From IMG/VR virus record IMGVR_UViG_3300045988_061465, positions 72,493 through 136,492 of that record: DNA of 64,000 nucleotides; one strand, 5' to 3'. Source of the DNA: a virus. Position numbers and translations under genes: made by a program. Under the pieces are notes generated by a model, which worked only from the letters and a program-made list of their open reading frames with translations, did no database searches and was not told where the DNA came from. Shown here piece after piece: positions 3,832-54,991 of the stretch. Numbering within the stretch: position 1 is the first letter of the stretch; each line of letters begins with the position of its first letter.

Positions 3832-4305
3832 CTATCCTTCTCGTAAGTCTTCCGTAAGGTCGTCATAAAATACTTGAATAGTTCTAAAGATAAATTTATT
3901 CTTTTCTGAATTGTAACATTCGTTCCAGCTACGATTTTTATAGTGGTCTAGAATTTCAGAAGCTCTTACATTATAATATATATTTCTGCAAAAGCTTTCG
4001 TCTTCATCACATTCAGCAGAATTTATTGTATAATTTCCGATGCCAATAGCGTAATGATAGTGACTTCCAGAAATTTCACTAAATCTATCTTCTAACTCAT
4101 AATCTTCGTATATTATTACTCTAAACTTGAACTTGTCCTTACTAAGAAGTTTTGCCAGGCAATATGCTACATAGCAGCACCCTCCAGCATTAATATCGTA
4201 CTCTTCATCTAGAAACCTACAAAGTTTATTCAGTCTCTCCGCTAGAATTTCTTGTACTTCCGTAGATTTGGAGTTCAATCTCCTCCTTTGCTTTTTTAAA
4301 CTCAT
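3832..4305 (-). CDS. hypothetical protein (157 aa)
   Basis: ORF track. Confidence 0.5.
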   Translation of the reverse strand: MSLKKQRRRLNSKSTEVQEILAERLNKLCRFLDEEYDINAGGCCYVAYCLAKLLSKDKFKFRVIIYEDYELEDRFSEISGSHYHYAIGIGNYTINSAECDEDESFCRNIYYNVRASEILDHYKNRSWNECYNSEKNKFIFRTIQVFYDDLTEDLREG

Positions 4306-4542: not shown

Positions 4543-5355
4543 CTATCCGCATACATCTATCACTGTTAAATTATTATTACTAGGCTTATATCCATAATCA
4601 CAATATGAATTAGTTATTATAACACGATCAAAATTGTTACACAGATTTACCAAGCCTTTGATATTTACAGCATGACAAACTATAATCTCGAATTTAGAGT
4701 CTGGATATCTTTCTTTAAGAACTTTAAGCTCTCCAAGGAATGTTCCTCCAGCGTCACACAAATCATCAATAAAAGTAAAGGTTGGATAATAACAATTAAC
4801 CTCTCTTCCAATGGAAAACTCCTTAATCTTACCAGTTTCCAAATCTCTCACCTTATTGAACACAATATGTCCCCAATTATTAGAGAGAATTTTGTACCTT
4901 TGGTAAGCTCCAGCATCTGGGAATACAATATTAGATTGAACATCTAGATGCGATTCAAAGTTAAACTTTTGAGGATAACATCTAGTTCCTAACAATCCCT
5001 TAGTTCTTTCCGAATGGGGTTCCAAAATCATAACATGACGATAATTCATAGTATTCAGGATACTACAAACCACTTTTAGAGAAAATGGTCGGTTAAAGTC
5101 CATTACTCTATCCATACGCATGGACATTAGATAGGTAATAAACAAATCCCACTCAATCTCTTGTCTATCAAGAATGTCTCCGACTTGAGTTAGAATAAAT
5201 AATTCTTCAGCAGAAGTAATTCTACATATAACCTTTACTGAATCTTTCCTATCAAATTCGTCAGGAAAACTTATCTGAGGTTCTCCGTCAGGAAATCTAG
5301 TGAGGTTATACTTAATCTCACTTTTGTCCAAGTTAATTAAGTTTAATAATTTCAT
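4543..5355 (-). CDS. ribose-phosphate pyrophosphokinase-like (Prs / possible ADPR-PP synthetase Adps)
   Basis: N-terminal FPDGE (Prs-like FSDGE) and a PRPP-binding-type motif FIDDLCDAGGT (cf. Prs VLVDDMIDTGGT). 270 aa. Confidence 0.7.
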   Translation of the reverse strand: MKLLNLINLDKSEIKYNLTRFPDGEPQISFPDEFDRKDSVKVICRITSAEELFILTQVGDILDRQEIEWDLFITYLMSMRMDRVMDFNRPFSLKVVCSILNTMNYRHVMILEPHSERTKGLLGTRCYPQKFNFESHLDVQSNIVFPDAGAYQRYKILSNNWGHIVFNKVRDLETGKIKEFSIGREVNCYYPTFTFIDDLCDAGGTFLGELKVLKERYPDSKFEIIVCHAVNIKGLVNLCNNFDRVIITNSYCDYGYKPSNNNLTVIDVCG

Positions 5356-5830
5356 CTACAACATATTTTAAAATTTCGTAACTTTCTTCTAAGCCTGCTC
5401 TATCATCCAGTAAAATATTATAATAGGACTTTTTAGAATTTGGGAATAGTCTACTACTTGTAAAGGGAGGTATGATCATATCATTGATAAGATTCCCTAC
5501 CCTCATTTGAACACACTCCACTTGTTTCTCTATAATTTTATCTTCATCTTCTTCAGTGGAAAATAAAATCATTTCAAAACCTAGCATAGTACAATGTCTC
5601 AATAAGTTGACGACACAACTATAGTCTCCTCCATTATTATGGTAGTCAAAAATAGTGTTGTCATAATCGAAAGCGACTATTAGCTTTCCGTATTTCTTAT
5701 ACTCTTCTAATAGTCGCTTCTTGCAAGCCTCTTTTCCGAATGGATGGTTAAAACTTTCCATAAAGCCCTTCATTAATTCGCTGTCTAACTTCTTTAAGAG
5801 TGTATTCCTTCTTAAGAACACCGTCTTCAA
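5333..5830 (-). CDS. HAD-superfamily phosphatase-like protein
   Basis: LIVAFDYDNTIF matches HAD motif I (hhhhDxDxT). 165 aa. Overlaps the Prs-like and NAMPT-like genes. Confidence 0.4.
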   Translation of the reverse strand: MKTVFLRRNTLLKKLDSELMKGFMESFNHPFGKEACKKRLLEEYKKYGKLIVAFDYDNTIFDYHNNGGDYSCVVNLLRHCTMLGFEMILFSTEEDEDKIIEKQVECVQMRVGNLINDMIIPPFTSSRLFPNSKKSYYNILLDDRAGLEESYEILKYVVDEIIKLN

Positions 5831-7310
5831 ATACAGTTTCTAGACAACCTCCATCCTCTACTTCAGGAGTTACTTGGTCTTCAGCATAGTAGACACCATT
5901 GACATCCTGATATACTGCAATCAGACCTTTCAAAGAGTTCTTAGTTCCATCATCAGTCTTAGGATGTTTGAATATTTCTTTCAATTCTCCATTAATTACA
6001 CAAGCAGTAGCCTTAATTGCAAATCCTAAGCTATCTCTACTTGCATACTGATATGAAAATGAACCTACTCCTAGAACAAGATTGCAAGCTGCCATATGAG
6101 CGTTCTCAAGTCGCATATAGATTTGCTTCTGACGTTCAAGAGTAATAGAATCACCATACAACAAACCTATTTTCGTACTAGGATAACGATAATCCCTAGA
6201 AGTAGTATTCCAGCCGAATATTTTACCAAGCATATAATAAGCACCATAGTATTGACCTTCTGAAACTTCTACATACTCAGCATCATCGTTAAATGGGGCA
6301 TAGCAACAATAATACTTACCCTCTTTCATCCTAGTATGGAAGTGAGGATTAGTTCTTAAACCACAAATAATATCAACAGGGTCTCCGCTATCTGGACGAA
6401 TAACTACACGTCCATCACGAGCCATAATATCCTTCTTTAATTTGGGAAGGAAGTTTTCAATAACATTCCAGAAGTCCCAAGTATCAGAAACTATAGAAAC
6501 GAACCCAGATGGATACAATTCATTAATTAATCGCTTAAAGGTTTGAAGTTCATCCTCTTCTCCGCCAGCACACATTACAGAATGTTCTGTAGCTGGAACA
6601 GTAGCAGCAATTAATTCATTGTCAGAATTTGCACCATAATATTCTTCTAGAGCAGCAATAGCTGGAATGGTCTCACTTCCAACAAACGAAGTCATATGTG
6701 CCATACCAGAAATGATAGCAGCCTCTAAACCAGCCATTCCTCTCATAGAGAAGTCATGACACAAGAAATCCAGATTTACATCTTCTGGAAATCCGGTATG
6801 TACTGCGTGTCTTTTAAGTTCCTTCTTATAGAGTCTTGCTCTAGTAGCAGAGGTGCAAGGCATCCACAGAGTACAACTAATCAAAGTCTCTAGATAATTA
6901 GTTAACCAGAAGAACTCTGACTTTGTATTAGTAATAGTCATCATGGGAACTCTGATAGGGCATACTGAACCTTCTGGCAACGCTTTAATGCGAATAGGAA
7001 GGTAACCCAAATCATACAAGGCTTCAATATGTCTATACCCTACAGATTCAATTCCCACGAAGTTGTGAACTCTTCGATAAAACATTTCTACAGCTTTCTC
7101 TTTAGGCAACTCAAAGAAATTCTTGTTAAATTCGTCAATCAAATACTTTTTAATTAAATACTGGATTCCGAATACTACAGAACCTTCAGTGGCTTCTGGA
7201 AAGTATTTGTTGCTTCTGGGAGTCCAATTACTGTAAACTTGTTCAGTACCTTCTGGGTACATTCTGTGGTGGCCCAATTTATAGCCATCTGTTGCATTAA
7301 TTATTTCCAT
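5748..7310 (-). CDS. nicotinamide phosphoribosyltransferase-like (NadV/NAMPT or Namat)
   Basis: 520 aa. N-terminal ATDGYKLGHH is the hallmark NAMPT motif (TDSYKxxH family). Lies next to the Prs-like gene. Confidence 0.75.
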   Translation of the reverse strand: MEIINATDGYKLGHHRMYPEGTEQVYSNWTPRSNKYFPEATEGSVVFGIQYLIKKYLIDEFNKNFFELPKEKAVEMFYRRVHNFVGIESVGYRHIEALYDLGYLPIRIKALPEGSVCPIRVPMMTITNTKSEFFWLTNYLETLISCTLWMPCTSATRARLYKKELKRHAVHTGFPEDVNLDFLCHDFSMRGMAGLEAAIISGMAHMTSFVGSETIPAIAALEEYYGANSDNELIAATVPATEHSVMCAGGEEDELQTFKRLINELYPSGFVSIVSDTWDFWNVIENFLPKLKKDIMARDGRVVIRPDSGDPVDIICGLRTNPHFHTRMKEGKYYCCYAPFNDDAEYVEVSEGQYYGAYYMLGKIFGWNTTSRDYRYPSTKIGLLYGDSITLERQKQIYMRLENAHMAACNLVLGVGSFSYQYASRDSLGFAIKATACVINGELKEIFKHPKTDDGTKNSLKGLIAVYQDVNGVYYAEDQVTPEVEDGGCLETVFEDGVLKKEYTLKEVRQRINEGLYGKF

Positions 7311-10897: not shown

Positions 10898-11303
10898 CTG
10901 CTAATTTATCTGCTAAATTGTTCATTTCAGAAAAGAAATCGGAATTTGAAGTGTGTCCCTTAACCCAACAAAATTTTATGTCAGGACAAAACTGGCTTGT
11001 CTTAGCAAAAACTTTGTCATATAAGTTCCACAACTCTACATTCTTTTTTCTTTTCCATCCTTTTGTAGCACATCCTATGACATACTGAGAATCTGAATAG
11101 ATGGTAAGAGATTCTATCTTACGACTTACTGCATTAAGAGCATATATTACAGCTAACAACTCACATTTGTTGTTAGTAGTATTTGGAATCATCTTGCTAA
11201 ATTCATAGGATTTTTTCCCATCAATTACGAATACAACTCCTACTCCTCCTGTGTTTCTAGATGAACTAAAAGCTCCATCGGTAAAGACCTCTAAATTACT
11301 CAT
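10842..11303 (-). CDS. ribonuclease H (RNase HI-like)
   Basis: TDGA...CELLAVIYAL...IYSDSQYV...VKGHTSN...NNLADKLA matches RNase H catalytic motifs. Confidence 0.75.
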   Translation of the reverse strand: MSNLEVFTDGAFSSSRNTGGVGVVFVIDGKKSYEFSKMIPNTTNNKCELLAVIYALNAVSRKIESLTIYSDSQYVIGCATKGWKRKKNVELWNLYDKVFAKTSQFCPDIKFCWVKGHTSNSDFFSEMNNLADKLAVEASQEYETKKEQKQETH

Positions 11304-11691
11304 TCTGAGTATTAGTCCTGAGATTAGTTCCTAGTAGTATTGCTATCTTTAGCAGGTCGTCTTGATTATCACAAAATATATTATCCAAAATATAGTTTGC
11401 ATAATCACTTATTCTAACTCTCTTTCCTACAGCTCCATACTTCTCATTAAGCCACTTAATTTGTGGAATAAAGTCTTCCAAATTATCCCCAAGATGCCTC
11501 AAGGCTTTTCTAATAGAGACTGGAAACCACATTTTTTCTTTTATCCAATCTAAGTGACAATAACCAAAAGCAAAAGCTCTACTCAAATCCTTCTGAATGA
11601 ACTCGTCTAGCTCGAAATTTCTCTCATGCCTTCCTAATTCCTCAAAATCATCTTTTAAATCTAAACAGAACACTTCATTGAACTCAATCAT
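11296..11691 (-). CDS. hypothetical protein (131 aa)
   Basis: ORF track. Confidence 0.45.
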   Translation of the reverse strand: MIEFNEVFCLDLKDDFEELGRHERNFELDEFIQKDLSRAFAFGYCHLDWIKEKMWFPVSIRKALRHLGDNLEDFIPQIKWLNEKYGAVGKRVRISDYANYILDNIFCDNQDDLLKIAILLGTNLRTNTQNE

Positions 11692-12073
11692 CGCTCCAAG
11701 ATTCTATAACACCAACCAACTCTAGCATACCATATCTACACATAGCCTTAAATGGCCCAGTAGATATAGAAACAAATGTTGATTTGCTGTTTCTGTAATT
11801 TCTTATTACTTGCGTAAGTAAGTCTCTAGCTAGTGTTCTCAGGTCAGAAATAGATGGAACTCTATACTCTCCAGGACTTATATACATCCTCCAAGGAGAC
11901 TTTCCTACACATTTTCCATCATCGTCATATGTTCTATGACTCTTGTCCCAACTCATATATTCTAGAACCTTGTCAAAGTCAAAGTTCTCCATGATATAGT
12001 TATACTGAACATCAAGAGGTGGGGCATCACTGAAATTTCTTGTCTTCTTTACTTTCATTTTTATAACATTCAA
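11684..12073 (-). CDS. hypothetical protein (129 aa)
   Basis: ORF track. Confidence 0.45.
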   Translation of the reverse strand: MNVIKMKVKKTRNFSDAPPLDVQYNYIMENFDFDKVLEYMSWDKSHRTYDDDGKCVGKSPWRMYISPGEYRVPSISDLRTLARDLLTQVIRNYRNSKSTFVSISTGPFKAMCRYGMLELVGVIESWSDD

Positions 12074-17391: not shown

Positions 17392-17607
17392 TTTTAAATC
17401 TATTAAGTGTTCAACTTTTTGTTCATTTCTCCCTCTAAATTCCTAAGAGTTTCTATACTCTCCTCATAGAACTTATCCTTACCTAATTCACAAACTTTGT
17501 AATTAGATAATATTTGCTGGAATCGCAAATGTGGACTACATTCTATGATTTGAGCTAGTCTAGTTAAAATCTTAAAGTTAGCTTGTTCTCTAAGCTTAAT
17601 ATCTTTT

Positions 17608-18105
17608 TCAATCTGAGCTTCCATACTTGTTAATAATATCTAACTCTAATTCTTTAACTTTACTCTCATATAGAGAATCTTCGGCATATCCAATCCTATC
17701 TAGGAATCTATAATAGTCCTCTTCTGGATCGTACCTACTTAGAATAAATTGCTTATAAGCAAATACACAGCTTATCCAACTGTCAAACTTGAAATAGGAC
17801 ATCGTTCTTGAATTATACAATCCGAACAAATTATTGTTGTCCTTACAAAGTTTAGACTTGAAGTTACCAGATTCTAGAACAGCTTGAGCTGTTATAATAG
17901 CAGGGCTTGGGAAATCATAGTGTTTAAGGGTATTATACAATACTTCCTCATTCACCTCCTCCATCAAATAGAATGGGTGTTCCGGCATCAGCATAATTTT
18001 CTCCTCTGGAAACCTCGCAGAATGTATCCAGTGATGCAAAGAATAACCAGTTGCAAATCCGAATACAATACTAATCATTAAAATAATTAAAACTCTCTTT
18101 TTCAT
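17608..18105 (-). CDS. GH73-family peptidoglycan hydrolase (glucosaminidase-like), membrane-anchored
   Basis: N-terminal transmembrane segment. AIITAQAVLESGNFKSKL resembles the GH73 LESGWG motif. Confidence 0.55.
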   Translation of the reverse strand: MKKRVLIILMISIVFGFATGYSLHHWIHSARFPEEKIMLMPEHPFYLMEEVNEEVLYNTLKHYDFPSPAIITAQAVLESGNFKSKLCKDNNNLFGLYNSRTMSYFKFDSWISCVFAYKQFILSRYDPEEDYYRFLDRIGYAEDSLYESKVKELELDIINKYGSSD

Positions 18106-19630: not shown

Positions 19631-20302
19631 TTACGCAATAAGACTATAAGCCTCTTGCAGTAATTTAATAGTTGGAGTCTTATGATTATCTACAACAATT
19701 ATTTTGTAAATGTTCAAAAACTCATTGTAAGTCAATGAAGTACAAGTTAAGAAAATCTGGACATCCTCATTTATAGAGCCATTACTTAACCCTAGGTCTA
19801 CTTTTACCATGCTAGGTAATGTTCCAATCTGAGAAATATCCCAAGTTGATTTAGCTCTTCTTAATACTTCTCTCTGCTTTGCAGTAAGATTTTTCTCCTT
19901 CAATCTGGATTCAATAATATTTCCATCAAATTCTAAGGAATTTGCGTCTGGATTTGTATTATTTAAAGCCATTTGAATCTTCTGTACAGCAGAATCTTTC
20001 GGTTTTGGTGCAGAAGTAACAGACTCTTTAAGTCCTTTCATTATTTGCAATGACGGAATAAAATCCTTGATTTGGTTAGCGTTCCAAACTAGAAATTTTC
20101 CAGGACTGTCTTTAGTAGTTACTATATACTTAGTTCCTCCATTATAAGGAACAAGAATGTGCAAATCTGCATCACTATTTTTACTCCAATGGTCTGATAC
20201 TCGTATTTTTACATTACCTATAACAAAATAACGAGAAACAGTGGTTTCAGCTTCGATAATCTCGGAAGCTGTCGCTAATAAATACTTTTCTAATCTAGTC
20301 AT
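19631..20302 (-). CDS. hypothetical protein (223 aa)
   Basis: ORF track. Confidence 0.55.
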   Translation of the reverse strand: MTRLEKYLLATASEIIEAETTVSRYFVIGNVKIRVSDHWSKNSDADLHILVPYNGGTKYIVTTKDSPGKFLVWNANQIKDFIPSLQIMKGLKESVTSAPKPKDSAVQKIQMALNNTNPDANSLEFDGNIIESRLKEKNLTAKQREVLRRAKSTWDISQIGTLPSMVKVDLGLSNGSINEDVQIFLTCTSLTYNEFLNIYKIIVVDNHKTPTIKLLQEAYSLIA

Positions 20303-20325
20303 ATAATTAATCTAATTAATAATAG

Positions 20326-20398
20326 ATCCCCCACTCGGATTCGAACCGAGGTCACAAGATTACAAATCTAGTGTTCTGACCAACTAAACTACAGGGGA
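20326..20398 (-). tRNA. tRNA-Thr (anticodon UGU)
   Basis: Acceptor TCCCCTG pairs with TGGGGGA (two G-U pairs). Anticodon loop TTTGTAA. T-arm CTCGGTTCGAATCCGAG. Confidence 0.65.
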
Positions 20399-20540
20399 AT
20401 ATAGTGGAGATTTCCACTATTTACTAATTCTAACCTCTGCGGGAATATACTCATTAGTAAAAGTTTCTAGGTTTTACTTCGGGAACCATTAACCTTGTGC
20501 TTACTGTCGGGGACCGCATCCGTATCCATCCAGAAGCCTT

Positions 20541-20578
20541 GCCGAGACTGGGGGATTCGAACCCCAACCTTCACAGTG
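20541..20578 (-). other. orphan tRNA 3' fragment (T-arm plus acceptor 3' strand) directly downstream of tRNA-Asp
   Basis: GGTTGGGGTTCGAATCCCCCAGTCTCGGCA has a T-arm and an acceptor 3' strand. No matching 5' half is present. Confidence 0.5.
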
Positions 20579-20650
20579 CCGAGAGTACCAGACTCGAACT
20601 GGTGACCTTCGCATAGACAGTGCGCTATTCTACCACTGAACTAACCCTCG
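20579..20650 (-). tRNA. tRNA-Asp (anticodon GUC)
   Basis: Acceptor CGAGGGT pairs with ACTCTCG. D-arm TAGTTCAGTGGTAGAATA is Asp-like. Anticodon loop CTGTCTA. Confidence 0.65.
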
Positions 20651-20661
20651 GTGTAACTGGA

Positions 20662-21213
20662 TTACTCCAGACCAATTAAACCCTTCTCTAACATAATATG
20701 GTGATTCGGACATAACCATACTAAATTATTCTCATTGTTAATCTCTTTAATAAGAGTGTCTTCGTCAAATTCTAATATTCCTTTAAGATGATGTACTTCA
20801 AGTATTGCATCAAATTCATGATTATGACAATATTGGCATACTTTCTCACGTTCGGAACTTTCTAATACTCTACGAGCATTAGTCCTTATTTCTTGACATT
20901 TAGATGATAAGTACTTCTGCCCAGATGTATAATAACCTAATGTTTTGTTACCAATTCCATTAAGTTCTTCCCAGCAACTACGACACATTTCTGAATCTTT
21001 ATGCTTAGGTTTACCACATCTAGGACATATCTTGTTTTCATCGTGCTTTATCCTACCTCTATTATTGTAAGAAGCAGCACACGAATGACTACAAAACTGT
21101 TTCTTCCTCACATCTGCGACCCTCTGATTATCTAGTACTTCGATTACCTTACCACATTCCTTACAGTGGTTAGGATTCTCATAATACAATTTAAGAGATT
21201 GTTCTCGATTCAC
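20662..21213 (-). CDS. HNH endonuclease with Cys-rich zinc-binding region
   Basis: CKECG...CPRCG...HHLKGILEFDED...NLVWLCPNHH is an HNH motif. Confidence 0.65.
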   Translation of the reverse strand: MNREQSLKLYYENPNHCKECGKVIEVLDNQRVADVRKKQFCSHSCAASYNNRGRIKHDENKICPRCGKPKHKDSEMCRSCWEELNGIGNKTLGYYTSGQKYLSSKCQEIRTNARRVLESSEREKVCQYCHNHEFDAILEVHHLKGILEFDEDTLIKEINNENNLVWLCPNHHIMLEKGLIGLE

Positions 21214-21277
21214 AGATAAGTTTAATTAATTTTAATGACAGTGTGATATGCAAGCCATTACACCACAGCCTCGATAT

Positions 21278-21481
21278 TTAATCCCAGTACCATATTTCTC
21301 TACTCATAGCAAATCTCATAGATACTTTTCCTTCTAACTTTTTAAACCATTTCTTATGTCTAAAGAATTGAAATCTACATTTTCCTTTACGACCTCCACA
21401 AACGTGGTATCTCCATCTTCTATTATGCGGATTTCTACCCATTTGTTTTCTAGTCATTTTCCATTTCTTTCCGTAACTCAT
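21278..21481 (-). CDS. small highly basic protein (67 aa)
   Basis: ORF track; Lys/Arg-rich. Confidence 0.35.
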   Translation of the reverse strand: MSYGKKWKMTRKQMGRNPHNRRWRYHVCGGRKGKCRFQFFRHKKWFKKLEGKVSMRFAMSREIWYWD

Positions 21482-21531
21482 AATATATCATTTAAGTAGG
21501 GCTAATCAGACTTGAACTGATAACCTCCACA

Positions 21532-22080
21532 TCATAGCGCAATTACTCCTGCGTGAATTTCTCTGTGACACCTACAACAGAGAAGTATACATTTATCTAC
21601 CTCTTTCTTTAAAAGTTCTATAGGTTTGTGCTACCCAGATAATGAGAAATCTTTCTCGCTTGGGTCGAGGTGATGAAAGTCTAATGCTTCATTACATCTA
21701 TTATAGCCGCATATCTAACACTTTCCACCTTTATACTCGACTAGTTCCTATTTTGTACGCTTTCTATATTCTTTAACGTTGTCGTAGCCAGTTTTAGGAG
21801 TTATCTTTTTGCTTACTATAACGTTTCGAAGTCTATTATAGGATATTCCAGAGAGTCTCGCAACCTCTTTTATGTTACCTATTTCGTCATACATTTTCTA
21901 AACTTCTATAATTTTCTCTGGAGTTAGCTCAACTATCTTTTGGCATAATCCAAATTCTTTACAGATATTAGAAACAGAACCTTTTCCAATAGACAATTCT
22001 TCAGATATTTTATCATAAGAATATCCATTTTCTCTAAGAACTTTTACTTGTTGTTTGATTTGTTCAGAAATTTTCTACAT
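21532..22080 (-). CDS. HTH plus HNH endonuclease-like protein with 5 in-frame TAG codons (TAG-containing gene inside the early region)
   Basis: Hand translation of the minus strand gives M[TAG]KISEQIKQQVKVLRENGYSYDKISEELSIGKGSVSNICKEF...CGYNRCNEALDFHHLDPSEKDFSLSG[TAG]HKPIELLKKEVDKCILLCCRCHREIHAGVIAL, ending at TGA. The HNH motif is intact only if TAG is read through. Confidence 0.6.
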
Positions 22081-22097
22081 ATTATTTACAGTATTAG

Positions 22098-22169
22098 TTG
22101 GGAAGGACAGAGTTGAACTGCCGTCTAGAAATTATCAGTTTCTTGTTCTAACCGTTAAACTACATCCCA
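22098..22169 (-). tRNA. tRNA-Ile (anticodon GAU)
   Basis: Acceptor TGGGATG pairs with CTTCCCA (one mismatch). Anticodon stem AGAAA/TTTCT with loop CTGATAA. T-arm GGCAGTTCAACTCTGTC. Confidence 0.6.
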
Positions 22170-22179
22170 ATATTATTGA

Positions 22180-22210
22180 TGTGGTGCTCTAACCAGTTGA
22201 GCTATAGCCC
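22180..22210 (-). other. orphan tRNA 5' fragment (acceptor plus D-arm only)
   Basis: GGGCTATAGCTCAACTGGTTAGAGCACC is a perfect acceptor 5' strand plus D-arm. No matching anticodon or T-arm or acceptor 3' strand follows. Confidence 0.45.
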
Positions 22211-22299
22211 TATTTCTCTTTGTATCACCATGCAAGTGCACATTTACAAGCGTCTTTATATCAGGACACTTCCCGTGCCAGGAATTGCTACAAAGAGTG

Positions 22300-22853
22300 T
22301 GGACCTAACGGGAGTCGAACCCGTGTCCAAACAACCCTTATTACAAGGATAACGTGCGTCTCATTTTTATTACATCAGCTAGTGAGTTCTAGCATTTAGA
22401 TAGTTTTACTAGATTTACTCTGAACTACACTATCGGAGTTCCAGAAACTAGTTTACAAACCACCAAACTGGGGCTGACCGAAGTCAACTCTCCACCACCT
22501 ACTTTTTAACGCTAAAATAGGAAAACGAGTGTTTGTGGTGAGTCAACCACGCAGGCACACATCCCTTCTGTTTAAAGACAACGGAGATTCAGTCTTACTA
22601 ACTCTTAGAGTGTTCTGATTAAAGATATACCACGGATTACCGTCCGCACGCCATTAGCGATATACCTAACCTCTTCTGTTTCTAGGTCTCTCCAGTAACC
22701 CGACTTGATTAATAGCGTCTATTAATAAGCCAGCAGCTTAGGCTGCCATTCTTACAGGTGCAATTTCTGCAGTTATTTGTTTTCGTCGTTTAAAGAGATT
22801 GCGCTCTACACGTCCTTATAATTTGTAATCGCCTGTCAAATCCAAGTAGGCCC
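22300..22853 (-). ncRNA. ssrA: tmRNA (SsrA), about 554 nt, candidate tag peptide AEIAPVRMAA
   Basis: 5' end GGGCCUACUUGGAUUUGACAGGCG (cf. E. coli GGGGCUGAUUCUGGAUUCGACGGG). 3' end GGACACGGGTTCGACTCCCGTTAGGTCCA forms a T-arm plus acceptor. Acceptor GGGCCTA/TAGGTCC gives a G3-U70 wobble and A73, the alanine identity elements. An internal mini-ORF reads GCA GAA ATT GCA CCT GTA AGA ATG GCA GCC TAA (plus coordinates 22738-22770). It is preceded by AAACAAAUAACU, resembling the E. coli resume context AAAAAAUAGUC. Confidence 0.7.
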
Positions 22854-25878: not shown

Positions 25879-26220
25879 TTAAGATAGTAATTCCTGCGCC
25901 TCAATCTCGCCGATTATTTTAGTAACCGCAATCTTGAACGGATTTCCCTTAGTTTTGTCAAACAGATGTACATCACGTACCTCGTCAACCTTGTCAGGAA
26001 CATTCACCTTTCTTTTCCCTCTCTCTATGGTCTTCCAAGTGATGACTTCGCACCGTTTCACGTCATAAACGCTATCGTTGCGGTCTACATAGACCCTGAA
26101 GAAGTTCTTCTTATGCTTCACAATCTCAACTCTTTTAAAGTTTTTGATGTTAGCATGAAATTTCAAATCGCATTTTCCGTTAGGTAAGAAAATCAATTCT
26201 GCCATAATGATACTCCGCAT
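25879..26220 (-). CDS. hypothetical protein (113 aa)
   Basis: ORF track. Confidence 0.5.
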   Translation of the reverse strand: MRSIIMAELIFLPNGKCDLKFHANIKNFKRVEIVKHKKNFFRVYVDRNDSVYDVKRCEVITWKTIERGKRKVNVPDKVDEVRDVHLFDKTKGNPFKIAVTKIIGEIEAQELLS

Positions 26221-26341
26221 AGTCGGAGATTCAAAGTTAAACTATGTTAATTCCAGTCTTTCGTCTGGCACTCCACCTCGTTTTAACCAATAGCTACTGT
26301 TCTTCACTACTTGAGCTAAGCTCTAAACTGGGATAAAGGTA

Positions 26342-26725
26342 TTATTCTATATAAATAAATGGTTTTCCAAATTCTTGCCTGAAAGACTCAAACCAGCCTT
26401 CCATTTCCTCATCACTATCAAAATAGATAGACTCATCATGTCTCTCCGAGAACTCTAGAATAATATGCGGCTTCTGATATACTATTCCGTCCTTGTAGAA
26501 AGATGTTCTCTTATTAATTGATTCGAGCATCCCTTTCTCAGAGTAAGTCCCAAAGCATGGGTCTAGAAGATACCAATAGTCAGTATGTCTTTTCCAGAAT
26601 AAGAATTTAGTATCTGCTATTTTATGCTCCCATTCTGGATGTTTTCTAGTTTTAAAAACTAGTATCCTCCTTATTAAATTTCCATTAATATATTTATCCA
26701 TAATTAATCCCAATATTCTGGACAA
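26342..26725 (-). CDS. hypothetical protein (127 aa)
   Basis: ORF track. Confidence 0.5.
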   Translation of the reverse strand: MSRILGLIMDKYINGNLIRRILVFKTRKHPEWEHKIADTKFLFWKRHTDYWYLLDPCFGTYSEKGMLESINKRTSFYKDGIVYQKPHIILEFSERHDESIYFDSDEEMEGWFESFRQEFGKPFIYIE

Positions 26726-33845: not shown

Positions 33846-33851
33846 ATGTTG

Positions 33852-33903
33852 CGGAAGGACAGGGATTCGAACCCTGGGGACGTGTTACCGCCCGACGGTT
33901 TTG
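33852..33903 (-). other. orphan tRNA 3' fragment (T-arm plus acceptor 3' strand) directly downstream of tRNA-Ser(UGA)
   Basis: CAGGGTTCGAATCCCTGTCCTTCC. Its acceptor 3' strand TCCTTCC resembles the TGCTTCC of the upstream tRNA-Ser. Confidence 0.45.
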
Positions 33904-33995
33904 AGGAAGCAGTGGGACTCCAACCCACACATCGCTTTTACACGATTACTGGTAGTTTTCAAGACTACTGCCTTAGCAATTAGGCTTATACTTCC
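33904..33995 (-). tRNA. tRNA-Ser (anticodon UGA), type II with TTGGAGT T-loop
   Basis: Acceptor GGAAGTA/TGCTTCC. Anticodon stem GTAGT/ACTAC with loop CTTGAAA. Long variable arm with an ATCG/CGAT stem. T-arm GTGGGTTGGAGTCCCAC. Confidence 0.55.
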
Positions 33996-33996
33996 A

Positions 33997-34389
33997 TTAC
34001 AATGAAACTTTATATTTGTCCCATTTATCCGTGAGAGTTAGAGTACTTTTAACTGTAATCTCACTTGAAGGAATCTCATACATATCACCGTTGACTACTA
34101 CAATAAATAATATATCACATGTAGAATTATCAAAGTGTCTAATCTTTGATTGTCCAGAAGAGCCACCACAATTCTTTAATAGAACTTCGTAGTTGCCACT
34201 CTTTGATAGGCATTGAGTAGTTTTAACAGAAACTCTCTTCAACCCATCTTTATCTATTGCTATATCATACTTTTGAGTATCATTTAAAGGAATCAGGACA
34301 GGAATACAATTAGTTGTATAATAAGCTATAGCCCTGCCCAACCCTAAATTGCCTTGATGTGATTTGTAGTCGCTTTCCCAAGCGTTCAT
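33997..34389 (-). CDS. hypothetical protein, possibly PD-(D/E)XK-like (130 aa)
   Basis: ORF track. A weak D...D/ExK-like pattern (YDIAIDKDGLKRVSVKT). Confidence 0.4.
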   Translation of the reverse strand: MNAWESDYKSHQGNLGLGRAIAYYTTNCIPVLIPLNDTQKYDIAIDKDGLKRVSVKTTQCLSKSGNYEVLLKNCGGSSGQSKIRHFDNSTCDILFIVVVNGDMYEIPSSEITVKSTLTLTDKWDKYKVSL

Positions 34390-34552
34390 TTACATAACAT
34401 TAAAGTTTCTAACTATTCATCTAACCGTTGCAATAAACCTGACTCTGCCACCCTTCCAAAAGCTAGTCTTATGACTAGCTAAAAATCATACTAAGAAGCA
34501 ATATTACACAGAATATAGCTGGAATACACCAGCCTATAGCTTGGACTGCTCC

Positions 34553-36144: not shown

Positions 36145-36408
36145 CTTATTTATTAGTTTTTAATAGACACCAATCTGGAATTAATACCTTTTTCGTAAGG
36201 TCTTAACATTCCCTCAATTAGTTTATTCTCAGACTCCTTACAGAGTGCTTTCTCGTCATTGAACCAGTCGTTAGGGTCAGGAACAATTAAGCAGTGCGGA
36301 CATTCTCTACACTACTTAATTTCTTTTTGGAATATCACACTAGTACCAGATTTCTGGTAAGTATCCTTCTCCATATTCATACGTTATCATTTTGTATTTA
36401 TTTAAAGG

Positions 36409-36603
36409 TTAAACTAGTTTCCATCCTTCACTCCAATATGACTCCTGTCTATCCATCCAGAATAGTGAAGGGTCAACCATTATACCATCCTCAAATACAT
36501 ATAAACCATTGGAGTTCATACTTACCCATTCATCAGGTCCGAAATACCTATGTCTTACTTTCTTTCCTTCAGACATAGCTTTAATTGCTTTTTCTTTTGT
36601 CAT
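36409..36603 (-). CDS. hypothetical protein (64 aa)
   Basis: ORF track. Confidence 0.35.
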   Translation of the reverse strand: MTKEKAIKAMSEGKKVRHRYFGPDEWVSMNSNGLYVFEDGIMVDPSLFWMDRQESYWSEGWKLV

Positions 36604-36706: not shown

Positions 36707-37053
36707 GAATCGACCTAGTAGAGAACCCTGGTTTCCTCATTTAAATATGACTAACCTATATGCAGTGGGTATACATATTTCTAAAATCCATATCCTAGGT
36801 CTCGCTAATAGAGTTTTATTCATAGACAGATTTATAATAATCTATCCAATAGTCTGCTTCCATATCTTCGAAGATTTCTTTAAGTTCTTCATCAGATAAT
36901 CCTTCGTATTTGTCTTCCATAAGTATAATACAAACATTATATAGCTGAGTTTTTCTTTGAACCAATCTAATATCGAATACTCATGATAACACTCCCACAG
37001 TGAGTTATACTCTTCATTATCTAGATTACTACAGTATTTAAGATAACCTTTCA

Positions 37054-37425
37054 TTATATCTTTCTTCTATTAAATAGTCTAAAATATTCGTCAGAGTATA
37101 CATTACATAAATCCTTATACTTTTTTGGCATAGGATAATCAAAGTCATCAAATGCAGATTCTTTAATAAATCCATCATAGAGAGCCATGTTTGCTGTAGT
37201 AACAGCAATATTACAATTGCGCTTCTTTCCCCAGTCAACAATGCTATTCATAACACTATTAAAGTATTCTGTATCATTATCAACCTGTAGGTAAATTTCC
37301 ACTCTGCAAATTGCAGGATTTTTGAATCCTTGTTTACCTTGTCTAAGAGTTATCTTAGATACGAAATTCAAGTCTAGCAAATCTGCTATTCTATCCTTAG
37401 CTACAATTCTAGAAATTCTTATCAT
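37054..37425 (-). CDS. hypothetical protein (123 aa)
   Basis: ORF track. Confidence 0.45.
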   Translation of the reverse strand: MIRISRIVAKDRIADLLDLNFVSKITLRQGKQGFKNPAICRVEIYLQVDNDTEYFNSVMNSIVDWGKKRNCNIAVTTANMALYDGFIKESAFDDFDYPMPKKYKDLCNVYSDEYFRLFNRRKI

Positions 37426-37819: not shown

Positions 37820-37964
37820 GTGTAAGTATGTGTTTCACAACAAATACTCACTGCGTAAGAAAAAGAAAAATTCAAGAAAATCAAATTTTATCTATCTTAG
37901 AAAAGGTGTAATTTAATCTATCTAAAGATATAATACAATCTTTAGCAAAATTAATTCCCTTTGT

Positions 37965-38345
37965 CTAATTATTAGCAGGAGGTTCTTCTCTAATAGTAAT
38001 AGAATTTCTATTGGCTACATCGCATTCAGGGAATACATAAATATTATGAAGGTCACAACATATCATAATATCTACTTCTTCCTCATCATACTTATGAATA
38101 GTTCCCTTGTTATAATTATTACTTGTTAGGCTAAAACTCAAAGAATTATTTACAGTTTTACTAGCTGTAGTTTTCACCTGGGTTTTATAAAACTTTTTAT
38201 TGTAATATATAACAAAGTCAAATGGAAGATTATCAGACATAGGCAGAAGAATGTCTAAACCATATTTTGATAATTCCCCTATAGCTATACGTTCACCAAT
38301 TTCTCCAAGCTATTTTTTGTTTTTTAATTCGTCTACATTTATCAT
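37965..38345 (-). CDS. YraN/PD-(D/E)XK-like small nuclease; upstream start at 38345 requires read-through of an in-frame TAG
   Basis: The ORF track gives 37965..38240. Extending upstream adds M INVDELKNKK[TAG]LGEIGERIAIGELSKYGLDILLP, a conserved-looking GE-rich N-terminus typical of this fold. If TAG is sense, the 3' end may instead extend to a TGA near 37878. Confidence 0.4.
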
Positions 38346-38366
38346 AATTTTAAGTGTTTATAATAG

Positions 38367-38437
38367 TTCTCCCTAAGAGAGTCGAACTCTTGTCTTCTGA
38401 TTAAAAGTCAGAAGCTCTACCGTTGAGCTAAGGGAGA
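38367..38437 (-). tRNA. tRNA-Lys (anticodon UUU)
   Basis: Acceptor TCTCCCT/AGGGAGA. Anticodon stem TCTGA/TCAGA with loop CTTTTAA. Confidence 0.7.
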
Positions 38438-38444
38438 ATAACTG

Positions 38445-38516
38445 TCTTCCCTCCCAGATTCGAACTGGGATTAGAGGCTTAGAAGGCCACTGTTCTATCC
38501 GTTGAACTAAGGGAAG
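38445..38516 (-). tRNA. tRNA-Arg (anticodon UCU)
   Basis: Acceptor CTTCCCT/AGGGAAG. Anticodon loop CTTCTAA. The stem has one T-T mismatch. T-arm CCCAGTTCGAATCTGGG. Confidence 0.55.
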
Positions 38517-40480: not shown

Positions 40481-41240
40481 TTTTCTTTTCTTTTTAATTG
40501 TTGCATTTTACACCTAAAACTTACTCACGTTATATCTAATTAGATATTAAAACCTATCTAAGTCCTTACGGGCAAGGTATCGAGTATTGTAAGAAACTGG
40601 TGCCCTCAATGTCTTGGGAAGTTATTGAGTTTTTGATTAATAGCTCTTGTACGCATTACATGTCTAGAGCCATGACAAAACCTAATTTAATAGGACGCTG
40701 GTAATAAAAATTCGTAATAAATTAAAATAATAAATAAAAATAAAAATAATAATCAGGCGCATTTACTTCTTGGTTATGCTATTGATGCTTCTCCTGAGCA
40801 GAGCCAATATTATATGACGTTATTGGCTATTTACGTCTATTCCCCTATTCTGCTATTAGGTTGGTTGCCTTATTGTGAGTCCTGGAATAGCGCGAACCTA
40901 ACGCTATAAATCTCACAGTCTACTTCATTTCCATAACTTATCCAAGTAGACGAAGGTTACCCAATCAGTATTGGGACAATCACAGCGGCGTTTATTTATA
41001 CTCGTCCCGTACGAGTTTAACAAAAAAATGTCAGGAATAGGTAATCACCTGACTATGAGCTCGGAAGCCAACTGCTCTTTGTAGGAAACTCATCCTCAGC
41101 ACACGTTTTGCTTCAATACCCGAAACGTAGAAAGCACATTTAATGACGGTTACTAACTTCCCTCCTATCTACCGACAAGTTCAGAGTTTCGTCTAGGTCT
41201 CATCAGATGGTATTTTATACTCTCCTAGGTTGAGTTTTAA

Positions 41241-41274
41241 AAATATCCCCACCGCTGTGGGGATAAAAAATGAA
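41241..41274 (-). terminator. 8-bp GC hairpin (ATCCCCAC-CGCT-GTGGGGAT) followed on the minus strand by ATTTTTAAAA
   Basis: The only strong GC hairpin in the 1.8-kb ORF-free region. Could terminate leftward transcription from 42302-42994. Confidence 0.4.
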
Positions 41275-42301
41275 CACTATCAAAAGACCTTCCTGTGCCA
41301 CTCTCCTTTGAATTGTTTCACAACAATTACATAGTCTCTGGGCGTACTCATTATAGTCTCCAATAATACACAACAATAGTTCCCTACTCCGGACTTGAAC
41401 CAGAATCTTCTCCTTTAGAGGGAGATATACTGACTTGTACTAGTAGGGAAATACTCCACCTGCCTAAGCTCCTTATGGGAGCTGTAGGCTATCTAGAATA
41501 AGATGGAGAGTTATTTAGATAGTTTCCTATGCTATCTACGTTACCAACGTTCACTAAGAATATAGGTAGCTAATCCATATTCTTGCGACTGAGTTCGAGG
41601 TAGGAAATATACCCTTATGAGGTACCCTCTTATCAGCTAGCCTTATTTTAATCTAGCGGCTTATACTAGGCAACTTCTAAATAAATAAAATGCATAACTA
41701 TAAATGATATGCTTTGGTCTACTGGCATATCAGCAGTACTTCATAATATTGCTATAAGCGACCAACCCTATAGCTCAATCCTCTTGTAATAGTGTTTAAG
41801 TTTGCGAATATACACATTACAATCGTAGCAGTTATTTTCGGATATTTGGGCTATCTGCGTAACCCCGCTTTTGTTGCCTTAACAGGCTAAATGTTAGAGT
41901 AAATAATCATTTGTAGTATGAGTTATAAAACTCGTCCTACTGGCGATTTTTTGAAAACTGGAAAAAGTCGGAAAATTGGGTGCTGACGTTGTGGACAATT
42001 ATTCTCCTTACTCTCCATATTTTCACGTGAAACATACACGATTTTACTAGAAATGATAGTCTTTCCTATCAGCCAGACATAAAACTAAAACTACTACAAA
42101 AGTTAACTCGGTTTTTGATTTTTTTGTTTTGTTGTTGATTTCTCCGTTGACCAATGTTCCAATGATGGAGTTCATATGGGCATTTTATTTTAACTCATAA
42201 TACCTTAGAGCTGCACGTTTGACTTATTTTAAATCTCGTTGTGCGCTGAGATTACAATTAGATTCTGCCACTCTCACTTATTTATACACGAGAGAGTCGT
42301 G

Positions 42302-43268: not shown

Positions 43269-44120
43269 ATGAAAAGAAATCTAAATTTATTATTTGCGAT
43301 AATAAACGCATACAAAGGAAAAGAAGATTTAGCTCACTTTAGTACTTGTGAACTAAATAAAAAGTTCGGAATATCAAAAAATGATATTCCTAAGATGTTA
43401 AAAGAATTAGTAGATCTAAATTATGTAGAGAATCATACTATTAACGGTTTTTACAATAGATATAAAATTTTAAAGGATTATCCATGTCCAAACTTTATAT
43501 TAAATGAAAAATTAACTAACGCTCAAAAGGGATTCTTGTTAAGATGTATAGAGCAGAATATAACAGAAGATTTATCTAGAAAAGAAATAGCTAGAAGAGT
43601 AAATGGGAATGAAAACTGCGGAAATTTAAAAAGAACAATAGATGGAATATTACGAGTTTATAATAACGAGTCTTCAATATTTGGAATACTAAATAATTAT
43701 TCATATATTTCTTTGATTCCAGAGAATGCGGTTTATATAGAAAATAAAGGGTATCGATCAATTACCTCCCAAGAAAAAGCACATAAAAAATCTGAAACAC
43801 AATCAGAGAAAATTGCAAAACATTTAAGATATAAATCAGAAAATAGAGCAAAGAAAAGTTCTAGATATATAGAATATTCAATTACTGAAGATTATATTGA
43901 ATCATTATTATTAAAGCAAGAATATAAGGATTATTATACTGGATTAATTCCAGAAAATTACGAAGATTACTCAATAGATAGAATAGATAGTAATTTGGGG
44001 TACGTAGAAGGAAATATTGTTATCACAACTACCAGAGTAAATGTTGCTAAGAATGATATGACCACAGAAGAATTTAAAAAATTAATTTCTGATTTATATA
44101 ATAATATTTCTAATTTCTAA
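43269..44120 (+). CDS. HNH_3-type homing-endonuclease-like DNA-binding protein
   Basis: The C-terminal SIDRIDSNLGYVEGNIVITTTRVNVAKND matches the HNH_3 pattern (DRID...N...N.K). First long plus-strand gene. Standard code. Confidence 0.5.
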   Translation: MKRNLNLLFAIINAYKGKEDLAHFSTCELNKKFGISKNDIPKMLKELVDLNYVENHTINGFYNRYKILKDYPCPNFILNEKLTNAQKGFLLRCIEQNITEDLSRKEIARRVNGNENCGNLKRTIDGILRVYNNESSIFGILNNYSYISLIPENAVYIENKGYRSITSQEKAHKKSETQSEKIAKHLRYKSENRAKKSSRYIEYSITEDYIESLLLKQEYKDYYTGLIPENYEDYSIDRIDSNLGYVEGNIVITTTRVNVAKNDMTTEEFKKLISDLYNNISNF

Positions 44121-44282: not shown

Positions 44283-44684
44283 ATGATTACAGACTTAGAA
44301 ACATTACTAAATTAGGACGAGTTTAAGAATCTCGTTGATGCAATTAATAAGAACTAGGAGTATTATCTATCAAGTAATGGTCTAACCATTAAAGCGGAAT
44401 CTACAGATGATTCTTTATTCTTATTAATATCTTATGAAAGATAGAAAGAGGAAAGCTGTCTAGCTAATGAAGAAGTAGGCAAATTCCAAAAATACTTAGA
44501 ATCTTTAGATGATGATTTATTTATAGATGTCTGCGAATATCTAGGAGAGTCCGAATTGAATAAAATTCAAGAATGTTTGGAAAGTGGAAAATTGGAATCA
44601 GTAAGAGCTGGGATTACTAAATTCAGAATGGCATTATCTAATGTGGTAACTATGAAAATAGAACAACTGAAAGCATATGTATGA
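44283..44684 (+). CDS. hypothetical protein with 3 in-frame TAG codons (133 aa)
   Basis: Hand translation MITDLETLLN[TAG]DEFKNLVDAINKN[TAG]EYYLSS...SYER[TAG]KEESCLANEE...KAYV, ending at TGA. Confidence 0.5.
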
Positions 44685-44821: not shown

Positions 44822-44893
44822 TGCCCTATGGTGTAATGGTTAGCACAGATGACTCTAAATCATTTAGTCTGGGTTCGAATCCTAGTAGGGCAA
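44822..44893 (+). tRNA. amber-suppressor tRNA-Gln (anticodon CUA)
   Basis: TGCCCTATGGTGTAATGGTTAGCACAGATGACTCTAAATCATTTAGTCTGGGTTCGAATCCTAGTAGGGCAA. Acceptor TGCCCTA/TAGGGCA is perfect. Anticodon stem GATGA/TCATT with loop CTCTAAA has U33, C34-U35-A36 and A37. It is a close paralogue of tRNA-Gln(UUG) at 30152-30223 and the only tRNA on the plus strand. Confidence 0.8.
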
Positions 44894-44911
44894 CGCCAAA
44901 AATTAATAGTT

Positions 44912-45618: not shown

Positions 45619-45855
45619 ATGGATAAAGAATTTAAATTTGAAGTCTTTATTAACGGCCAACTAATAAATACGATAAAAGCTGGATATTTAGAAAGTACAC
45701 TTAGAAGTGTTCCAGAGAATAAATCATTACTGATTGATATATGGAATGTAGTTGACAATTCAGTTAGAAATCTAATTAAAAATGGACTATATAAAGACAC
45801 TACACTAGAAAAAGCAATAATTGATAATACATTTGAGGGATATGATAGACTTTAA
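45619..45855 (+). CDS. hypothetical protein (78 aa)
   Basis: ORF track. Confidence 0.4.
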   Translation: MDKEFKFEVFINGQLINTIKAGYLESTLRSVPENKSLLIDIWNVVDNSVRNLIKNGLYKDTTLEKAIIDNTFEGYDRL

Positions 45856-46057
45856 AAAGACATTGACAAACTTACATAATGAATTTCCAGAATTTGACTT
45901 GGATACATTATTTAAAATACTAGATGCTATAGTAGAAACTTCTACTCCTACAATAACCATCCCAAGTGGTATTAGATAGCCATCAGACAAACCTTGGTGG
46001 GAGGATGGTATAAATAGAATCACTTGTACTTATGATACAAAGTATGATGTTAAATAA
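45842..46057 (+). CDS. hypothetical protein with 1 in-frame TAG (71 aa)
   Basis: Hand translation MIDFKKTLTNLHNEFPEFDLDTLFKILDAIVETSTPTITIPSGIR[TAG]PSDKPWWEDGINRITCTYDTKYDVK. Confidence 0.4.
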
Positions 46058-46059
46058 AA

Positions 46060-46096
46060 ATAGGCGAACCTAATCTCTAGGCTCGCCTATTTTGTT
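46060..46096. terminator. bidirectional intrinsic terminator (ATAGGCGAACC...GGCTCGCCTAT plus TTTTGTT, or TTTTTATTT on the other strand)
   Basis: A 10-bp stem with one mismatch, a 9-nt loop and T-runs on both strands. Sits between convergent genes. Confidence 0.6.
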
Positions 46097-47732: not shown

Positions 47733-47734
47733 TT

Positions 47735-48267: not shown

Positions 48268-48275
48268 AATGAATT

Positions 48276-49661: not shown

Positions 49662-49691
49662 AAAGATTAAAGATGTTAATGTTAATGATTG

Positions 49692-50258: not shown

Positions 50259-50260
50259 TT

Positions 50261-54990: not shown

Positions 54991-54991
54991 T

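Follow-up and report, generated by a model that had tools for sequence, protein, structure and literature searches.

The DNA analysed here (the window) is a 64,000-nucleotide stretch covering positions 72,493 to 136,492 of the IMG/VR virus record IMGVR_UViG_3300045988_061465, and is part of a partially recoded gut phage of ~190 kb in which TAG is read as glutamine (Gln; genetic code 15); in IMG/VR, the contigs of its close relatives are 178-193 kb long. At 21.5-22.2 kb, the minus strand of the window carries a resident tRNA-Ile(GAU) gene that is split by a cassette made up of a second, complete tRNA-Ile(GAU) and a homing-endonuclease gene with five in-frame TAG codons. The open reading frame (ORF), the cassette and the two remnants of the resident gene are arranged as follows.

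21536-22171, minus strand: whole insertion (tRNA-Ile plus HNH gene), ~636 nt, in the anticodon loop of the resident tRNA-Ile(GAU)
21532-22080, minus strand: helix-turn-helix (HTH) plus HNH homing-endonuclease ORF, 182 codons, with TAG at codons 2, 61, 111, 122 and 150
22097-22169, minus strand: cassette-borne tRNA-Ile(GAU), called by ARAGORN and by the Rfam tRNA model (64.2 bits)
22172-22211, minus strand: 5' remnant of the resident tRNA-Ile(GAU), with acceptor strand, D arm, 5' anticodon-stem strand and mutated loop
21497-21535, minus strand: 3' remnant of the resident tRNA-Ile(GAU), with ATGA, 3' anticodon-stem strand, variable loop, T arm and acceptor strand

The HNH ORF ends in a TGA stop, which sits in nucleotides kept from the anticodon loop of the split tRNA, and contains no internal TAA or TGA; when the region was shuffled, none of 20,000 shuffles stayed free of TAA and TGA across 182 codons. 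This confirmed the claim of an earlier note on this DNA that the gene is intact only if five TAGs are read through, and the HNH motif said to span a TAG, FHHLDPSEKDFSLSG-TAG-HKPIELLKKEVDKCILLCCRCHREIH, was found exactly as quoted. In the Pfam comparison, HTH_23 scored above its cut-off and the HNH and HNH_2 matches (E 0.009 and 0.015, respectively) fell under the curated cut-offs; the HNH assignment therefore rests on the Cys/His pattern and on the homologs. A database search recovered 1,968 homologs, many of them full length, and relatives in public records are annotated as HNH endonucleases; the nearest named homolog outside the close-relative group belongs to the crAss-like phage cr130_1. 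In an alignment of 37 homologs, C121, C124, H136, H137, C168, C171, H172 and H176 are invariant. The same alignment bears out the homologs' continuity across the TAG sites: TAG61 of the window occupies the position of an invariant Q61, and TAG122 aligns with Q or E within the motif KGGKC-x-ICGY.

Homologous DNA from four loci also carried in-frame TAGs, at partly differing positions (codons 2, 61, 122 and 129 in a relative at 85% identity, codons 24, 48 and 111 in one at 68%, and seven TAGs in one at 65%), and never an internal TAA or TGA. TAGs that shift in position without any accompanying TAA or TGA mark a sense codon rather than a decaying gene. Within the window, the gene encodes Gln with five TAG, four CAA and no CAG codons (56% TAG), which is the usage of the late genes described below. 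The search for related loci used the standard code for confirmation and under-recovers TAG-containing close relatives, of which it yielded a single close HNH locus (L177), so that few loci underlie the TAG statistics of the HNH family.

The interruption of the resident tRNA gene was established from its halves. A tRNA 5' half (22211-22180) lies just upstream of the complete tRNA-Ile(GAU), and the matching 3' half (21531-21497) starts one base after the HNH stop; ARAGORN called the joined halves a tRNA whichever loop was assumed. In MT836666.1, the tRNA-Ile(GAU) is uninterrupted (...CCACA CTGATAA TGTGG...) and the insertion is absent, showing that the ~636 nt between the halves are an insertion in the anticodon loop. 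The halves of the window are 94% and 97.5% identical to this intact gene, the figure of 97.5% being that of the 3' remnant against the intact gene in locus L004. Across IMG/VR, 19 viral contigs have the exact empty junction and two contigs besides the window have the filled one, and the cassette is 99.9% identical in contig 056908 (locus L177). Both the HNH cassette and the PF11645 nuclease gene at 37881-38345, described below, are present in some and absent from other relatives that are 95-100% identical. The intron mode of ARAGORN missed this split tRNA and recovered a split tRNA-Ser, described below; the split tRNA-Ile was identified by manual joining of the halves and by a custom scan for unpaired tRNA halves, which found exactly two split tRNAs in the window. 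The loop of the 5' remnant reads TCAATAA, as against CTGATAA in the intact tRNA-Ile(GAU); that is, CTG has become TCA at positions 32-34 (22172-22179, minus strand), with the rest of the remnants 94-100% conserved.

The cassette-borne tRNA is the only tRNA-Ile(GAU) in the window. Its anticodon loop is that of the resident gene (CTGATAA), and its anticodon, acceptor and T stems are entirely different. Compared with the homologous cassette tRNA in L005 and L007, it shows paired compensatory changes in the acceptor and T stems, which argues that the cassette tRNA is under selection as a tRNA, and it presumably replaces the split resident gene. Related loci show further states of the element. In more distant relatives (L007-L009), the cassette occurs in permuted order (HNH gene, then tRNA-Ile) inside a split tRNA-Ile, and the 5' half of the split tRNA-Ile is gone in another relative; older copies, that of L005 among them, have a lost or degraded half. 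The association with tRNA genes extends to the HNH family at large: among 80 diverse viral loci that encode it, 72 have tRNA genes within 1.2 kb. The HNH gene of Felix O1-like and phiM12-like phages abuts or overlaps a tRNA.

Several smaller observations concern the same locus and its relatives. The HNH cassettes of L003 (cr130_1, ~2410-2490), L184, L185 and L010 (~1410-1485) carry a non-canonical companion RNA of 76-83 nt, which has an acceptor stem, a T arm and a long arm but no D arm; the long arm ends in an Ile-type anticodon loop (UAU or GAU), ARAGORN made no call, and the folding z-score is just about -2. On the 3' side of the split gene in the window, a 220-nt segment within 21275-21495 (minus strand) holds a very basic ORF of 67 codons (21278-21481) and is absent in L004 and L177. 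On the other side, an 83-nt inverted-repeat element (22215-22297, minus strand), also absent in L177, separates the tRNA 5' half from the phage transfer-messenger RNA (tmRNA) gene, whose internal region differs in length from that of L177.

22297-22853, minus strand: phage tmRNA, matching the full-length model at 73 bits, directly upstream of the split tRNA-Ile

A second cassette of the same design occupies a tRNA-Ser(UGA) gene, and a third nuclease gene lies beside a tRNA-Lys/tRNA-Arg pair. Both of these nucleases belong to PF11645.

34423-34457, minus strand: 5' remnant of the resident tRNA-Ser(UGA), which is intact in the empty-site loci L258, L263 and L266
33997-34389, minus strand: second PF11645-type nuclease gene, 130 codons, TAG-free (E 5e-9, 36.6 bits)
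33903-33995, minus strand: cassette-borne tRNA-Ser(UGA), with no other tRNA-Ser(UGA) in the window
33851-33902, minus strand: 3' remnant of the resident tRNA-Ser(UGA), with loop TCAAA in place of TGAAA
37881-38345, minus strand: PF11645 (I-Ssp6803I-type PD-(D/E)XK) homing-endonuclease gene, 154 codons, two of them in-frame TAGs (codons 12 and 127)
38366-38516, minus strand: tRNA-Lys(UUU) and tRNA-Arg(UCU), a divergent version ('allele B') that travels with the PF11645 gene

In the split tRNA-Ser(UGA) (34457...33851), the PF11645 gene followed by the divergent tRNA-Ser(UGA) forms an insertion of 515 nt. Relatives show this locus in three states: intact and empty, filled, and an older filled state with a diverged 5' remnant and a deleted 3' remnant (L267). 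The decay of the remnants in the older copy argues strongly that the halves are dead and that the cassette tRNA does the work. The nuclease gene of the window has no TAG among its four Gln codons, and its 85% homolog in L267 has three TAGs. In the 3' remnant of the window, the loop change corresponds to G35 becoming C (33898-33902, minus strand).

The third nuclease gene, 37881-38345, sits between intact tRNA genes and not inside a tRNA. Its product matched PF11645 (gathering cut-off 26.1 bits) with an E-value of 8e-24 and 84.7 bits over residues 9-136, a span that covers both TAGs, and PDB 2ost was its only structural match. Among PF11645 homologs, Q127 never varies, and 22 of the 26 aligned rows have Q at position 12; the invariant Q of the QVK motif is encoded by CAG in the window and by TAG in L022 and L011. 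The earlier note had placed a YraN-like nuclease at 37965-38345. The gene is real, but it spans 37881-38345, position 37965 being its second TAG and not the end of the gene, and the label did not hold: the Pfam scan at E<=0.01 returned PF11645 alone and no match to the YraN/UPF0102 family, although YraN/UPF0102 and the product of this gene are alike in being small proteins of the PD-(D/E)XK fold. Allele B of tRNA-Arg and tRNA-Lys accompanies the PF11645 gene or what is left of it after deletion, and allele A occurs without the nuclease; the flanks are 98-100% identical between relatives with and without the gene, and two relatives (L021 and L036) have the linked tRNA alleles with the ORF deleted. 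As judged from these sequences, the module resembles intron-less homing with co-conversion of neighbouring alleles. Different insertions lie between tRNA-Arg and tRNA-Lys in other relatives, of ~500 nt in L019, L025, L033 and L040 (~5090-5598) and of ~240 nt in L029-L031. They match neither nuclease family, and each is probably another mobile element at a tRNA-Arg/tRNA-Lys hotspot.

To place these genes within the recoding of the phage, TAG use was counted on a TAG-tolerant ORF list, in which TAA and TGA alone served as stops and from which non-overlapping gene sets were built. The window consists of a minus-strand block from 1 to ~42 kb and a plus-strand block from ~42.5 kb, which diverge from a switch of both GC skew and coding strand at ~42 kb. 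It holds 29 tRNA genes (ARAGORN, Rfam), nearly all of them on the minus strand at 13.9-41.5 kb, and the products of the plus-strand genes from ~49 kb include portal and large terminase. In the early minus-strand block, 56 standard-code ORFs (9,528 codons) use CAA 156 times and CAG 105 times, 261 Gln codons in all, and contain no internal TAG, in agreement with the earlier description of the early genes as mostly standard-code. By contrast with these zero internal TAGs, the 13 ORFs of the late plus-strand block (48865-64000; 4,690 codons) contain 133 TAG, 76 CAA and 25 CAG codons, so that TAG accounts for 57% of their Gln codons; all 13 have at least one TAG, and the terminase and portal genes have 15 and 35, respectively.

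In the early set, TAG occurs only as a terminator, in the ORFs 3832-4305, 4543-5355 and 36842-37054 (minus strand); one of the three has a TAA directly after the TAG, and the other two would gain ~34-35 codons under TAG suppression. These three were accordingly rejected as TAG-containing genes, the TAG being the true stop. Other entries of the naive list were also rejected: 2451-2867, 5333-5854, 11296-11733, 17403-17687 and 25879-26439 are N-terminal over-extensions, 20299-20719 and 40722-41910 overlap RNA genes, and some others are nested frames. The two clear TAG-bearing genes of the early block, 21532-22080 and 37881-38345, are mobile homing-endonuclease genes in the tRNA array.

TAG use is a property of the gene and not of its position or strand, as had been proposed, since TAG-free and TAG-bearing genes are interleaved at 42.5-49 kb and TAG-bearing genes of the tRNA array have TAG-free neighbours. 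The following genes bear on this point.

20662-21213, minus strand: HNH-type gene (Pfam HNH_2, E 1e-4) adjoining tRNA-Asp, with no TAG among six Gln codons
44283-44684, plus strand: conserved gene, 133 codons, three TAGs, directly upstream of the second suppressor tRNA gene
46095-46286, minus strand: small conserved gene, 63 codons, two TAGs
46362-46703, minus strand: small conserved gene, 113 codons, one TAG
46818-48878, plus strand: TAG-free cluster encoding an exonuclease, a zinc-ribbon protein and a GroES-like protein

The two small minus-strand genes, as the earlier note held, do need TAG to be read. Both are conserved, and their TAG sites swap with CAA and CAG in relatives: position 47 of 46095-46286 is TAG in 34 relatives, CAA in four and CAG in one, and position 59 of 46362-46703 is TAG in 13, CAG in 34 and CAA in 33 of 80 relatives. 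The TAG positions of 44283-44684 and 45842-46057 swap in the same way. TAG is therefore read as Gln in this phage, given that it aligns with conserved Q in the HNH and PF11645 families and exchanges with CAA and CAG in the small genes, and that the second suppressor tRNA(CUA) resembles tRNA-Gln. The cluster at 46818-48878, whose functions are not virion functions, has no TAG among 21 Gln codons (P ~2e-8 at the late-gene rate). Its TAG-free status, which the earlier note had recognized, is thus statistically meaningful and does not reflect too few Gln codons; the description of the cluster as Q-rich was overstated, with Gln at ~3% of codons. The HNH-type gene 20662-21213 is unrelated in sequence to the HNH gene of the cassette and is 99% conserved in a relative that lacks the HNH cassette.

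TAG decoding would be supplied by two suppressor tRNA(CUA) genes, both near the switch at ~42 kb.

41379-41449, minus strand: first suppressor tRNA(CUA), at the high-coordinate end of the minus-strand block
44822-44894, plus strand: second suppressor tRNA(CUA), with a D arm like that of the phage tRNA-Gln(UUG)
41505-41678, minus strand: RAGATH-14 RNA (166.7 bits)
41171-41236, minus strand: RAGATH-1 hammerhead-like motif (54.2 bits, slightly below the cut-off of 56.3)
40774-40951, minus strand: weak match to RAGATH-7 (Rfam)

If transcription starts at the ~42-kb switch, a tRNA(CUA) gene lies near the head of each transcription unit and suppression could begin early. The first suppressor gene stands within an RNA cluster just inside the switch (40774-41678, minus strand), flanked by the RAGATH-14 RNA and the hammerhead-like motif, and ribozyme cleavage may release the suppressor tRNA from its transcript. 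That the full-length nucleases need TAG decoding follows directly from their in-frame TAGs, and they can be translated only in a cell with active phage tRNA(CUA). The further proposal, that the nucleases are withheld until late in infection, is a conjecture about timing.

We favour, as moderately probable, the reading that these elements are selfish homing cassettes equipped with a spare tRNA, and that their TAGs stem from relaxed constraint. The cassettes are polymorphic insertions, and their nuclease ORFs are intact once TAG is read as Gln, with TAG at conserved Gln positions; across ten nuclease ORFs of the window and its relatives, there is no internal TAA or TGA, and TAG makes up 30 of 62 pooled Gln codons (48%). 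We infer that each nuclease cleaves its resident tRNA gene around the anticodon stem-loop and that repair from a cassette-bearing genome copies the cassette into the cut site. The HNH plus tRNA-Ile(GAU) cassette would have been copied in this way into the anticodon loop of the resident tRNA-Ile(GAU), leaving two dead halves, and the PF11645 plus tRNA-Ser(UGA) cassette would have done likewise to tRNA-Ser(UGA). The cassette tRNA would escape cutting owing to its different stems and would take over the function of the lost resident tRNA, a natural home-and-rescue arrangement in which a spare gene does what splicing does for a self-splicing intron. The third nuclease, 37881-38345, would move together with the divergent tRNA-Arg and tRNA-Lys alleles, as in intron-less homing. 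With respect to codon usage, genes required before tRNA(CUA) accumulates would be purged of TAG, and genes not needed early would drift to ~57% TAG. Selfish nucleases would not be needed early, so CAG-to-TAG changes in them would not be removed and they would acquire late-type codon usage. In keeping with this, the TAG shares of the HNH gene (56%) and of the pooled nucleases (48%) compare with 57% in the late genes, TAG positions vary from homolog to homolog, and some nuclease copies are TAG-free. Relaxed constraint is the simplest reading of the nuclease TAGs and explains them at least as well as withholding until late does.

Several points weigh against this account. The presumed cleavage target follows solely from the position of the cassettes, and the Pfam HNH match of 21532-22080 is weak, lying below the curated cut-off. 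The TAG at codon 2, immediately after the initiating Met, is kept in the 85% and 97% relatives, and the HNH gene lacks any CAG; either feature could indicate selection for TAG over drift. Two nucleases of the array use no TAG for their four and six Gln codons, respectively, so an absence of constraint is not uniform among them. Finally, nucleotides 32-34 of the 5' Ile remnant are all altered, which the account does not explain; the specific loop changes in the Ile and Ser remnants may represent immunisation of the target site.

An alternative, in line with the earlier note and with the view of Borges et al. on Agate phages, is an adaptive timing lock, in which TAG is selected to keep the nuclease unmade until the code switch, for example until target genomes have replicated or co-infecting ones are at hand, or so that the tRNA array is not cut while being transcribed early on. 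The codon-2 TAG would halt translation straight after Met, and its retention in the two relatives, the 5 TAG, 4 CAA and 0 CAG of the HNH gene and the placement of TAG at invariant functional Q positions would all suit a lock, as would the statistical enrichment of the recoded codon in an early-gene intron endonuclease of TGA-recoded phages (Borges et al.). Other observations speak against a lock: the TAG share of the nucleases is not above that of the late genes, TAG positions are not kept between more distant homologs, the tRNA-Ser-associated nuclease has no TAG where its 85% homolog has three, the HNH_2 gene has none in six Gln codons, and the two tRNA(CUA) genes are situated close to the ~42-kb strand switch. 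We consider a timing lock possible but doubtful. Decay of the TAG-containing frames as pseudogenes in a standard-code region, which the earlier note had named as a way in which its reading could fail, accords with the fact that each ORF is broken under the standard code, that homing-endonuclease genes commonly decay and that L021 and L036 retain ORF-deleted remnants. It is effectively refuted by the ten ORFs, in which TAG is the only 'stop' and neither TAA, TGA nor frameshifts occur, by the absence of any open frame in the 20,000 shuffles, by the more than 1,900 homologs, many full length and with catalytic residues conserved, and by TAGs at invariant Q positions that exchange with CAA and CAG.

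The split tRNAs might also be intron-containing genes that still give a functional tRNA, with the HNH or PF11645 gene as the intron ORF. The anticodon loop is the classic site of bacterial tRNA group I introns, the founding member of PF11645 is intron-encoded, and the ends of the Ile insertion can form an 8-bp pairing (CCACATCA/TGATGTGG). This pairing was also considered as a bulge-helix-bulge or trans-assembly signal and dropped, as the empty site shows it to be the anticodon stem with a chance extension. No group I or group II intron was matched at E<=1 with permissive filters, including a search of 13-46 kb with the intron models, and Rfam searches, whether run with the gathering threshold or with E<=1, returned no intron or ribozyme inside the cassettes and no match to the half-tRNAs. 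The insertions of 636 nt and 515 nt are nearly filled by ORF and tRNA, every junction option for tRNA-Ile gives C33 with anticodon AAU or UAU and no normal loop, each cassette contains a complete tRNA of the same anticodon, and one half is lost or degraded in the older copies (L005 and L267). Taken together, these results make an intron very unlikely, and we retain homing cassettes with a spare tRNA as the favoured reading.

Three further genes of the window deserve mention beside those discussed above. The candidate at 36153-36380 had no Pfam or other family match, and the protein encoded at 43269-44120, between the early and late blocks, combines an N-terminal HTH with a C-terminal endonuclease VII/HNH-like domain.

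36153-36380, minus strand: candidate gene, 75 codons, with a CxxC...C motif and one in-frame TAG (codon 23)
36409-36603, minus strand: small ORF with a weak Tad2-like (Thoeris anti-defence 2) match, E 0.003, below the cut-off
43269-44120, plus strand: TAG-free gene for an HTH plus endonuclease VII/HNH-like protein (PHROG, E 1e-18)

The partial recoding of late genes from TAG to Gln in gut phages is reportedly also the subject of work by Ivanova (2014) and Yutin (2021). Such recoding has been described in crAss-like, Lak and other gut phages and proposed as a translational timer; a homing endonuclease in an early gene showed preferential recoding, and its synthesis was predicted to come late (Borges et al., bioRxiv 10.1101/2021.08.26.457843). 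Like those phages, the one studied here has suppressor tRNA(CUA), TAG-rich structural and packaging genes and standard-code replication and early genes, and both the gene-by-gene use of a recoded stop and the idea of a delayed homing endonuclease are already published. The published example is a group I intron endonuclease of a TGA-to-Trp phage (Agate), whereas the nucleases here belong to a TAG-to-Gln phage, are non-intronic, lie in the tRNA array and have a TAG share that is not above the late level. That the two clear exceptions of the early block are selfish mobile genes provides a natural control for whether recoding is adaptive or merely tolerated. On the practical side, annotation pipelines based on the standard code break the TAG-bearing nuclease genes and miss the split tRNAs.

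The architecture of the cassettes is a variant of known tRNA-associated homing endonucleases. I-Ssp6803I, a PD-(D/E)XK homing endonuclease encoded by the group I intron in the tRNA-fMet gene of Synechocystis, cuts intron-less copies of that gene in the anticodon region. This enzyme (structure PDB 2ost) belongs to PF11645, as do 37881-38345 and 33997-34389; as with the I-Ssp6803I intron, the element lies in the anticodon loop of a tRNA gene, but here no intron ribozyme was detected and a complete spare tRNA, not splicing, would offset the damage. Free-standing homing endonucleases in phage tRNA clusters, among them T4 SegB, are cited in PMC8421152, and Felix O1-like phages offer further cases. 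SegB resembles the tRNA-Arg/tRNA-Lys plus PF11645 module in that an endonuclease gene lies between tRNA genes and neighbouring alleles are co-inherited; SegB, however, is a GIY-YIG enzyme located between intact genes, whereas two of the cassettes here interrupt a tRNA gene and bring in a substitute with its anticodon. In the part of the literature searchable here, we found no description of a homing endonuclease that brings a replacement tRNA for the tRNA gene that it enters. A spare copy would be a third route, besides introns and inteins, by which a homing endonuclease can invade an essential gene harmlessly, and spare-tRNA cassettes would help to explain the shuffling and spread of phage tRNA arrays.

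In synthetic home-and-rescue or cleave-and-rescue drives, the nuclease is aimed at an essential gene, of which the drive itself brings a version that resists cleavage. One could go further and propose that phage tRNA arrays in general hold natural home-and-rescue drives, whose nuclease aims at the anticodon stem-loop of a tRNA gene and enters it there together with an immune, stem-recoded spare tRNA, and which are locked by TAG in recoded phages, although we think this generalisation rather unlikely. If the TAG lock, including that at codon 2, were true, synthesis of the nuclease would be confined to cells that a TAG-suppressing phage has already converted. The synthetic drives are engineered Cas9 systems in insects, whereas the element described here is a natural one of a phage, in which the immunity of the rescue copy is presumed from its divergent stems; in their combination of nuclease and spare gene, the cassettes mirror the engineered home-and-rescue gene drives.

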